A stretch of DNA of 31,006 nt, taken from assembly GCA_017609995.1 (NCBI GenBank), contig JAFCCX010000001.1, forward strand, positions 1 through 31,006, given 5' to 3'. Made by a program: the position numbers and the translations under genes. This document shows, piece by piece, positions 3,279-22,611 of this stretch. How positions within the stretch are numbered: the stretch's first letter is position 1; each line of letters begins with the position of its first letter. The notes under the pieces are model-generated. The model was not told the DNA's origin. It saw only the letters and a program-made list of their open reading frames with translations, and searched no databases. The DNA comes from Candidatus Pacearchaeota archaeon. Lineage in GTDB: Archaea > Nanobdellota > Nanobdellia > UBA10117 > JABICX01.

Positions 3279-3423
3279 AATCATCTTTCTTTTTCTTAGC
3301 GTCTTCATAATTTGTTTTGTTTAGAGCAACTGTTTCAGCTTGGTCAATTATTTTTTCAGAATCTGAAAAAGCTAAACCCATATCTTTCAGAATTTTCCGT
3401 AGTTCTTCTTTTCGGTCTGTCAT
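3259..3423 (-). CDS. Small hypothetical protein (54 aa), not in the ORF track
   Basis: ATG..TAA ORF MTDRKEELRKILKDMGLAFSDSEKIIDQAETVALNKTNYEDAKKKKDDSTSSSL. Minus-strand TTTATATT lies about 25-30 nt upstream, and the ORF fills an otherwise empty gap. Confidence 0.6.
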   Translation of the reverse strand: MTDRKEELRKILKDMGLAFSDSEKIIDQAETVALNKTNYEDAKKKKDDSTSSSL

Positions 3424-3502
3424 TAAGCTGCCTAAAACAAACTTGAATATAAAGTTTTAGGTTAAGAAAGGTTTAATAATTCTCTGAACAGTTGAAATTT
3501 AT

Positions 3503-3574
3503 GCCTCTGTGGCTCAGCGGTAGAGCGCGTGCTTGGTAAGTGCGAGGTCGCGGGTTCGATTCCCGCCAGAGGCT
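3503..3574 (+). tRNA. tRNA-Thr(GGU)
   Basis: GCCTCTG/CAGAGGC acceptor, loop TT-GGT-AA, GCGGG-TTCGATT-CCCGC T arm. Confidence 0.95.
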
Positions 3575-21855: not shown

Positions 21856-21947
21856 TAAGTTATCTATTTCTAATCTAGAACTTCCAAGACAATAAAGCTT
21901 ATAAATCGGGTTTTTTACATCTTTAAAGTTCTAAAGGACGAAAAATA

Positions 21948-22133
21948 ATGGGACGAATACGGACAAAATCAGTGAAAAGAGTGGCTGAAAAGCTACTTGA
22001 AACAAGTAAAGACGCATTTAGCAAAGACTTTGCTGAAAACAAGAAAAACATTTCTGAGCTAGTTGATATTAAGACTAAAAAGCTTAGAAACATGATTGCA
22101 GGGTACGTTACAAAGAAAGTGAAAACGTCGTAA
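21948..22133 (+). CDS. rps17e: 30S ribosomal protein eS17
   Basis: MGRIRTKSVKR...FSKDFAENKK...KKLRNMIAGYVT. Confidence 0.96.
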   Translation: MGRIRTKSVKRVAEKLLETSKDAFSKDFAENKKNISELVDIKTKKLRNMIAGYVTKKVKTS

Positions 22134-22190
22134 AGACTTTTTTTGTATGCCCCACAAATCTATGATTTGTTAGGGCGTTACAAAGAAAGT
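22101..22190 (+). repeat. Direct repeat plus inverted copy able to form two alternative long hairpins
   Basis: CGTTACAAAGAAAGT at 22106-22120 and 22176-22190; the complementary tract ACTTTTTTTGTA at 22136-22147 lies between them. Confidence 0.85.
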
Positions 22191-22218
22191 AAAGACTGCA
22201 CAATGAGGTTAACAAAAC

Positions 22219-22611
22219 ATGGAAGATTACGCTATATATGTTGGCGGTAAGCCATTTATGAATTATGTAACTGCAGTGGTTATGCAATTTACTACTAAAG
22301 GAGCAGATAAAGTTGTTATTAAAGCTCGAGGTAAGTTCATAAGCCGAGCAGTTGATGTTGCAGAAGTTGTCAAAAGTAGATTTTTAAGAGATCAAGTTGC
22401 TGTTGAAGGAATGGAGATGGATTCTGAGGAATTTACAAACAAAGAAGGAAAACAAGTTCGAGTTTCAACATTAGATATTACTCTTGGAAGAGTAGAGAGT
22501 AAACCAGCACCTGAACCAGCTCCAAAAGCTGAAAAACCAAAGAAAGAAGAACCTGCTGAAGAAGAGACACCTGCAGAAGAGACTGAAGAAGCTGAAAAGG
22601 AAGCTAAATAG
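22219..22611 (+). CDS. albA: DNA/RNA-binding protein Alba with an acidic Pro/Glu/Lys tail
   Basis: IYVGGKPFMNYVTAV, VIKARGKFISRAVDVAE, VSTLDITL; SD GAGGT at 22205-22209. Confidence 0.95.
   Translation: MEDYAIYVGGKPFMNYVTAVVMQFTTKGADKVVIKARGKFISRAVDVAEVVKSRFLRDQVAVEGMEMDSEEFTNKEGKQVRVSTLDITLGRVESKPAPEPAPKAEKPKKEEPAEEETPAEETEEAEKEAK

Follow-up and report, generated by a model that had tools for sequence, protein, structure and literature searches.

Small palindromic insertion elements are tiny, non-coding, hairpin-forming sequences that occur in multiple copies, lie at gene ends or within genes in frame, and have stems that carry compensated changes. They include the REP/REPIN sequences, MITEs such as the Correia elements, the Rickettsia palindromic elements, and the double-hairpin elements of Allomyces mitochondria. 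Integrative elements that use att sites (tRNA genes, icd) rebuild the 3' end of the gene that they target. Template-switch mutations are known to create RNA hairpins (Monttinen and Loytynoja 2022, PMC8794818). Our search of the literature found no paper on hairpin elements of the kind described below in DPANN archaea. We examined a long hairpin located between the genes rps17e and alba of a small-genome (DPANN) archaeon, and consider it probable that this hairpin is the scar of a small mobile hairpin element, left by a target-duplicating insertion into the last codons of rps17e.

The window, by which we mean the whole stretch of 31,006 nucleotides that was analyzed, is from contig C43 of a 532-kb, 71%-complete assembly, labelled G000 among the genomes compared. 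The features of the locus are as follows.

21948 to 22133, forward strand: rps17e coding sequence, the live copy, 61 amino acids, with stop TAA at 22131-22133 (open reading frame; Pfam Ribosomal_S17e, 59.8 bits)
22101 to 22152, forward strand: fold A, in which 22101-22120 is paired with 22136-22152 (17 bp, 3-nt bulge, 15-nt loop)
22106 to 22133, forward strand: D1, the upstream copy of the duplicated gene end, still translated and ending in VKTS and the stop (direct repeat, translation)
22136 to 22147, forward strand: I, an inverted copy of 12 nt (22109-22120 / 22179-22190), which pairs with both copies
22136 to 22190, forward strand: fold B, the 24-bp long hairpin, consisting of I, the core and the start of D2 (-26.9 kcal/mol, z -6.26)
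22148 to 22175, forward strand: the core, or cap, of the putative inserted hairpin element, 28 nt (dispersed multi-copy hairpin)
22176 to 22206, forward strand: D2, the likely displaced gene end, untranslated (translation; frame +1; homologue C-termini)
22205 to 22209, forward strand: Shine-Dalgarno-like GAGGT of alba, 10 nt before the ATG (read from the sequence)
22219 to 22611, forward strand: alba coding sequence, 130 amino acids (open reading frame; Pfam Alba, 63.8 bits)

The genes rps17e and alba are adjacent at 30/30 loci of the order and at most loci of the class too, and GGAGG or GAGGT motifs comparable to that of G000 also precede alba in relatives. Some 24 nt ahead of the rps17e ATG, a TTTAAAG tract (window 21914-21935) is consistent with a TATA box for a leaderless transcript of rps17e; nothing similar is visible before alba.

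The RNA of this region can adopt two folds, as the initial annotation had described. The long hairpin of about 24 bp at 22136-22190 was borne out with the same coordinates, and is built of 12 bp, a 1-nt bulge, 5 bp, a 1x2 internal loop, 7 bp and a 3-nt loop. Its folding energy compares with a mean of -10.5 kcal/mol in 200 dinucleotide shuffles, none of which folded as well (0/200). Folding likewise bore out the upstream pairing, in which the rps17e stop sits inside the 15-nt loop of fold A, and for nascent RNA extending to 22172 the structure of minimum free energy is fold A at -21.2 kcal/mol. Folds A and B both use the same 5' arm (22136-22152) and are mutually exclusive. The U7 tract noted in this shared arm is also present, at 22138-22144 within I, where it represents the complement of Lys codons. 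The partition-function check that had been proposed gave a divided result: both folds form, but they are not balanced. In a context of 146 nt, the downstream fold has pair probabilities of 0.52-0.99 (three of the four outer- and mid-stem pairs of fold B that were checked lie at 0.89 to 0.99), compared to 0.003-0.004 for the upstream fold. Because the downstream fold dominates in the full context, the modeled two states would be kinetic at best. In the same ensemble the unpaired probability is 0.4-0.87 over the ribosome-binding site of alba, which is partly open, and 0.7-0.8 over the alba start codon, which is largely so.

Both pairings are possible because of a direct repeat, 22106-22126 / 22176-22196, which is exact over 15 nt, matches at 19/21 positions overall, and has a spacing of 70. 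The order along the gene is D1, I, core, D2. Taking the reverse complement of the first 12 nt in the paired part of the repeat gives I, whose inverted alignment to the rps17e end has a z of 3.4. The core has a 5-bp closing helix (22148-22152 with 22173-22177) that encloses a 7-bp hairpin at 22154-22170. When D2 is read from 22177, in the register of the live gene, it gives VTKKVKTAQ and a stop; this relic stop, at 22204-22206, overlaps the Shine-Dalgarno GAGGT of alba. The three nearest S17e proteins in a large protein collection, from a search that returned four homologues only, end in KTAE or KTADR, and the live D1 ends in KTS. D2 looks ancestral because these C-termini resemble the D2 peptide more than that of D1, and on this comparison of sequences D2 is likely to be the displaced original end of rps17e.

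The cap belongs to a dispersed family. Its exact stem is found in four copies in G000, compared to 0.016 expected from base composition and none for a backwards control. Across the order, the cap-hairpin pattern occurs six times each in G008 and G034 (both counts include the rps17e copy), three times each in G031 and G035, and once each in five more genomes, with the multiple copies of a genome at unrelated loci; the reversed control pattern gave a single match apiece in two other genomes and none elsewhere in the order. An alignment of thirteen dispersed copies shows an element of two hairpins, about 57 nt long, with compensated base pairs. The first hairpin of the family, RCAAA(A)TC / GATTT(T)GY with a loop of 3-6 nt, is present at 22154-22170, where the 7-bp stem is identical to that of the copy on G000 contig C48; the copies on contigs C47 and C12 differ from it in the outermost R/Y pair only. 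The short closing helix of the family, CCA/TGG, is represented at rps17e by the 5-bp helix, which has the same geometry with CCC/GGG instead. All four G000 copies have in common a three-A variant of the stem that appears in no other genome's copies, which suggests that the rps17e copy arose within the G000 lineage and so argues for a lineage-specific insertion. We infer that the element itself is mobile.

A covariance model (R1) was built on the alignment (A1) of the 13 dispersed copies. The model matched the rps17e element of G034 at 23.1 bits (E 5e-4) and the rps17e site of G000 weakly, at 11.7 bits (E 0.007 in 701 nt). The slot of the family's second hairpin, which a G/C-rich linker joins to the first, is filled in the G000 rps17e site by the target-derived helix of fold A, and the weak score for G000 can be accounted for by this replacement of the usual second hairpin with target-derived sequence. 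No Rfam family matched the dispersed element. A relaxed hairpin pattern was not above control in G012 and family f1, and no clear multi-copy family was found in G012.

Other copies of the element also lie at gene ends. In G000, copies at a gene for ScpB (Pfam, 90 bits) and at a 150-aa open reading frame resemble the rps17e copy in that the stop codon falls within the loop of the hairpin nearer the gene. The second hairpin of the element encodes the last codons and stop of ScpB and of the 150-aa open reading frame in these copies (L113 473-528 and L112 509-565, on G000 contigs C12 and C48), which indicates that the element supplies the C-termini of both. A further G000 copy follows a tRNA. A tRNA gene of G031 (L096, approximately 1435-1557), for which ARAGORN gave no report, has an insert in its T-loop (an intron) that holds a hairpin of the family and is followed by a C-box-like CTGATGA. 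In G008, two-hairpin copies (L094 and L107, on contigs C1 and C14) are interspersed with a different repeated module, approximately 40 nt long, an arrangement that suggests composite or nested repeats.

Four further lineages of the order have this layout, at the identical codon: G012 (L013), G034 (L007), G008 (L008), and a metagenome contig (L033), the last being the one locus with the layout of two found in a metagenome scan. D2 begins at Ile/Val-Thr codons in all four. The D2 relics read ITKKVKTQSL in L013 (frame +2), a frameshifted VTKK-LKTQAA in L007 (frame 0), ITKKIKMGID in L008 (frame 0), and TTQKMKSAED in L033 (frame +1), each followed by a stop. Because the frames differ between lineages D2 cannot be read through, and its translation by read-through or bypass was ruled out on these varying frames and on the stops that intervene. 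I matches each lineage's own codons (for example 14/15 in L007, z 7.0). The two copies in L008 still have at least 37 nt in common (z 7.9). In L033, where the cap differs in sequence, D2 together with the TATA-like tract behind it matches the native gene end and spacer of the uninterrupted sister loci L032 and L004.

None of the five other genomes in the G000 family has the structure, most of the order lacks it, and 60 additional rps17e loci from the class are also without it. On a tree of S17e and Alba the five bearers are scattered and require five changes, and at least three of these are imposed by branches with good support; L033 branches from among non-bearers. The S17e and Alba tree follows taxonomy, and horizontal transfer of the entire locus from one bearer to another was ruled out on this ground. 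No pair of filled and empty sites was seen in near-identical genomes.

Five matches on one codon need targeting or selection, and random insertion does not explain them. Survivorship, by which only insertions that rebuild the gene end survive, is a further candidate explanation of the recurrence. Some benefit of the structure is possible, because direct repeats are easily lost by slippage and these nonetheless persist. The junction between rps17e and alba seems prone to insertions. In G021 the spacer between the two genes contains a free-standing gene resembling LAGLIDADG homing endonucleases (L028 1764-2495; Pfam LAGLIDADG_3, 73.5 bits), which has homologues in four other genomes of the order. 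A break made by a homing endonuclease is at most a conceivable cause of the recurrence, as the homologues of this gene in G034 and G008 are off the contig that bears rps17e.

We propose that a small non-coding hairpin element inserts into the last codons of rps17e, just before Val/Ile-Thr-Lys-Lys. The insertion would leave D1 as the rebuilt and translated end with a new stop, followed by I, the core, and D2, the old end that now would serve as the alba leader. I always ends at the edge of D beside the core, which suggests copying, turning back, and run-off at the broken end; DNA synthesis primed by a break may thus copy the target, make a U-turn, and run back to the end of the break. I can pair with D1 as well as with D2, so the two exclusive helices would simply have come with the insertion. 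Searches for a Y1 transposase, a tyrosine recombinase, and a reverse transcriptase gave no match in the 71%-complete G000 genome. As a consequence of the proposed event, the rps17e stop would have shifted upstream by 73 nt and would no longer lie on the ribosome-binding site of alba. Translation of alba is probably from a transcript shared with rps17e, and a stable hairpin and U7 tract placed between the two cistrons should, it is likely, loosen their translational coupling. The hairpin and U7 tract may also cause partial termination or alter RNA stability.

A second footprint is present in contig C73 of G000. Here a gene start (ribosome-binding site and ATG) is duplicated as a perfect direct repeat of 30 nt (3416-3445 and 3535-3564), with about 90 nt of hairpins between the copies; 2 nt beyond copy 1 is an inverted copy (11/12) of the first bases of the repeat. 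An upstream open reading frame of 40 codons begins at the decoy start. This layout is that of the rps17e case, and the event is evidently recent. A genome-wide scan of G000 for exact direct-inverted-direct 9-mers identified the C73 site only.

Among the alternatives to an insertion is a pure template switch of replication without any mobile element, a fold-back event in which the polymerase would have copied the end of rps17e, changed strands, copied back and changed strands again, duplicating that end and producing a direct-inverted-direct triplication and with this a hairpin. That order is the classic signature of such an event, I agrees with the codons of each lineage as described above, and template switching is a published source of new RNA hairpins. 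The cap can also be aligned to the Met-Ile-Ala codons of rps17e; derivation of the cap from these codons was dropped when the cap proved to be multi-copy. A template switch should template all new bases locally, but only I is local in origin and the core is dispersed: the cap occurs at unrelated loci with the same lineage-specific stem variants. In addition, five independent complex switches at one codon are very unlikely. The initial annotation had offered a duplication scar made by template switching as its alternative to regulation. Of this, the duplication stands, and a pure template switch is incomplete as an account of the locus since the cap is not locally copied; we consider it unlikely.

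A bolder version of the insertion reading is that the family integrates without a transposase of its own, by break-primed copying and a U-turn, that it is repeatedly targeted to one rps17e codon, and that its RNA was co-opted into a role in which a structure sensitive to translation uncouples or tunes alba expression. Taken as a whole we regard this combination as distinctly unlikely; if true, the co-option would explain why the structure persists despite its flanking direct repeats.

We also considered that the locus encodes a selected two-state RNA, in which a ribosome ending rps17e masks D1, steers the 5' arm into the long hairpin, and tunes termination at U7 or translation of alba. Both folds do exist and nascent RNA forms fold A first, the part of D2 that forms the arm is better conserved than the D2 tail, and the structure persists in several lineages despite its direct repeats. 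The 3' strand of the cap (22159-22172) can furthermore pair at 13/14 positions with the region of the alba start codon (22210-22223), a pairing used only if the 3' arm of the long hairpin is blocked; inspection by eye did not find it in the other four bearing lineages. Against such a switch, fold A has a share of 0.3-0.4% at equilibrium, the ribosome-binding site of alba is largely free of pairing under either fold in the ensemble, and the insertion layout accounts for every feature. Alternative structures conserved with covariation, as expected of a riboswitch or attenuator, were not found in relatives, and a scan of the hairpin region against Rfam, at the gathering cut-off and at E up to 10, gave chance matches only. 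Conservation had been set beforehand as a check, and the absence of the structure from the five same-family genomes, the nearest to G000, as well as from the greater part of the order and class, speaks against a conserved regulator. The translation-coupled attenuation or Alba autoregulation suggested in the initial annotation is thus without support, given this absence, the single fold at equilibrium, and the lack of an Rfam match; both pairings follow automatically from the repeat layout, and the cap is a multi-copy dispersed hairpin. We judge a selected switch to be improbable. The scar may still have a secondary effect on the expression of rps17e and alba.

A protein-spliced bulge-helix-bulge intron in the rps17e mRNA, the loss of whose 70 nt would fuse D1 with D2 and bring back the ancestral C-terminus, is highly improbable. 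Excision of 22106-22175 does leave an in-frame, native-looking end, and G000 has T-loop introns in tRNAs, as does G031, in which such an intron holds a hairpin of the same family. The unspliced frame, however, already ends at a normal stop, and a scan of the five loci for the bulge-helix-bulge motif (two 3-nt bulges, 4 bp apart) found no flanked motif giving an AGY(I/V)TKK junction. An assembly or amplification chimera is hardly credible, for although inverted chimeras are a known by-product of whole-genome amplification, the copies here are diverged rather than identical and the same layout occurs in four independent assemblies.

The insertion of a hairpin element thus represents our preferred reading, and it can be compared with the systems that the locus most resembles. 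Like bacterial leader-peptide attenuators of the trp type, the rps17e end has two exclusive helices, one of them over translated sequence beside a U tract; unlike them, it is archaeal, lacks conservation across relatives, has unbalanced energies, and appears to originate by insertion. What looks like a riboswitch would in this case become a readable insertion footprint, and the locus serves as a warning for RNA-structure scans, as a direct-inverted-direct insertion can mimic a two-state switch. With the hairpins made by template switching (PMC8794818) the locus has in common an inverted copy of adjacent sequence, made in one step, that yields a perfect stem in the transcript. It differs from them in that the rps17e event would add a foreign multi-copy hairpin and a direct duplication, and recurs at one codon.

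The differences from the small palindromic elements lie in the arms and in the duplication. The long arms found here copy the target and not the element, and the duplicated stretch of target is long, varies in length (from 15 to about 37 nt or more), and is accompanied by an inverted copy of the target. A MITE or other IS-derived element would bring terminal inverted repeats of its own and a matching transposase, and would duplicate its target over a short, fixed length; the arms at rps17e are target copies, and the duplication is 15 nt exact (19/21) in G000 and at least 37 nt in L008. Unlike the case of REP/REPIN, no RAYT/Y1 transposase or other recombinase was found here in searches for Y1 and tyrosine recombinases. 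Two regularities appear to be new. The inverted target copy always adjoins the core of the element, which constrains the mechanism of integration, and the same codon of an essential, conserved gene has been struck in at least three and probably five lineages, pointing to targeting or to strong survivorship.

A parallel for the fate of the gene is provided by the integrative elements at att sites. As with these, the interrupted gene remains intact since its end is supplied in a further copy, with the old end persisting as a relic. Unlike these, the insert at rps17e is about 40-70 nt and is without an integrase, and the replacement end appears to have been copied in situ, because D1 resembles the D2 of its own lineage in L008 and L033. 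The locus would accordingly show a ribosomal protein gene losing and rebuilding its C-terminus, with the old coding end turned into the leader of the next gene.
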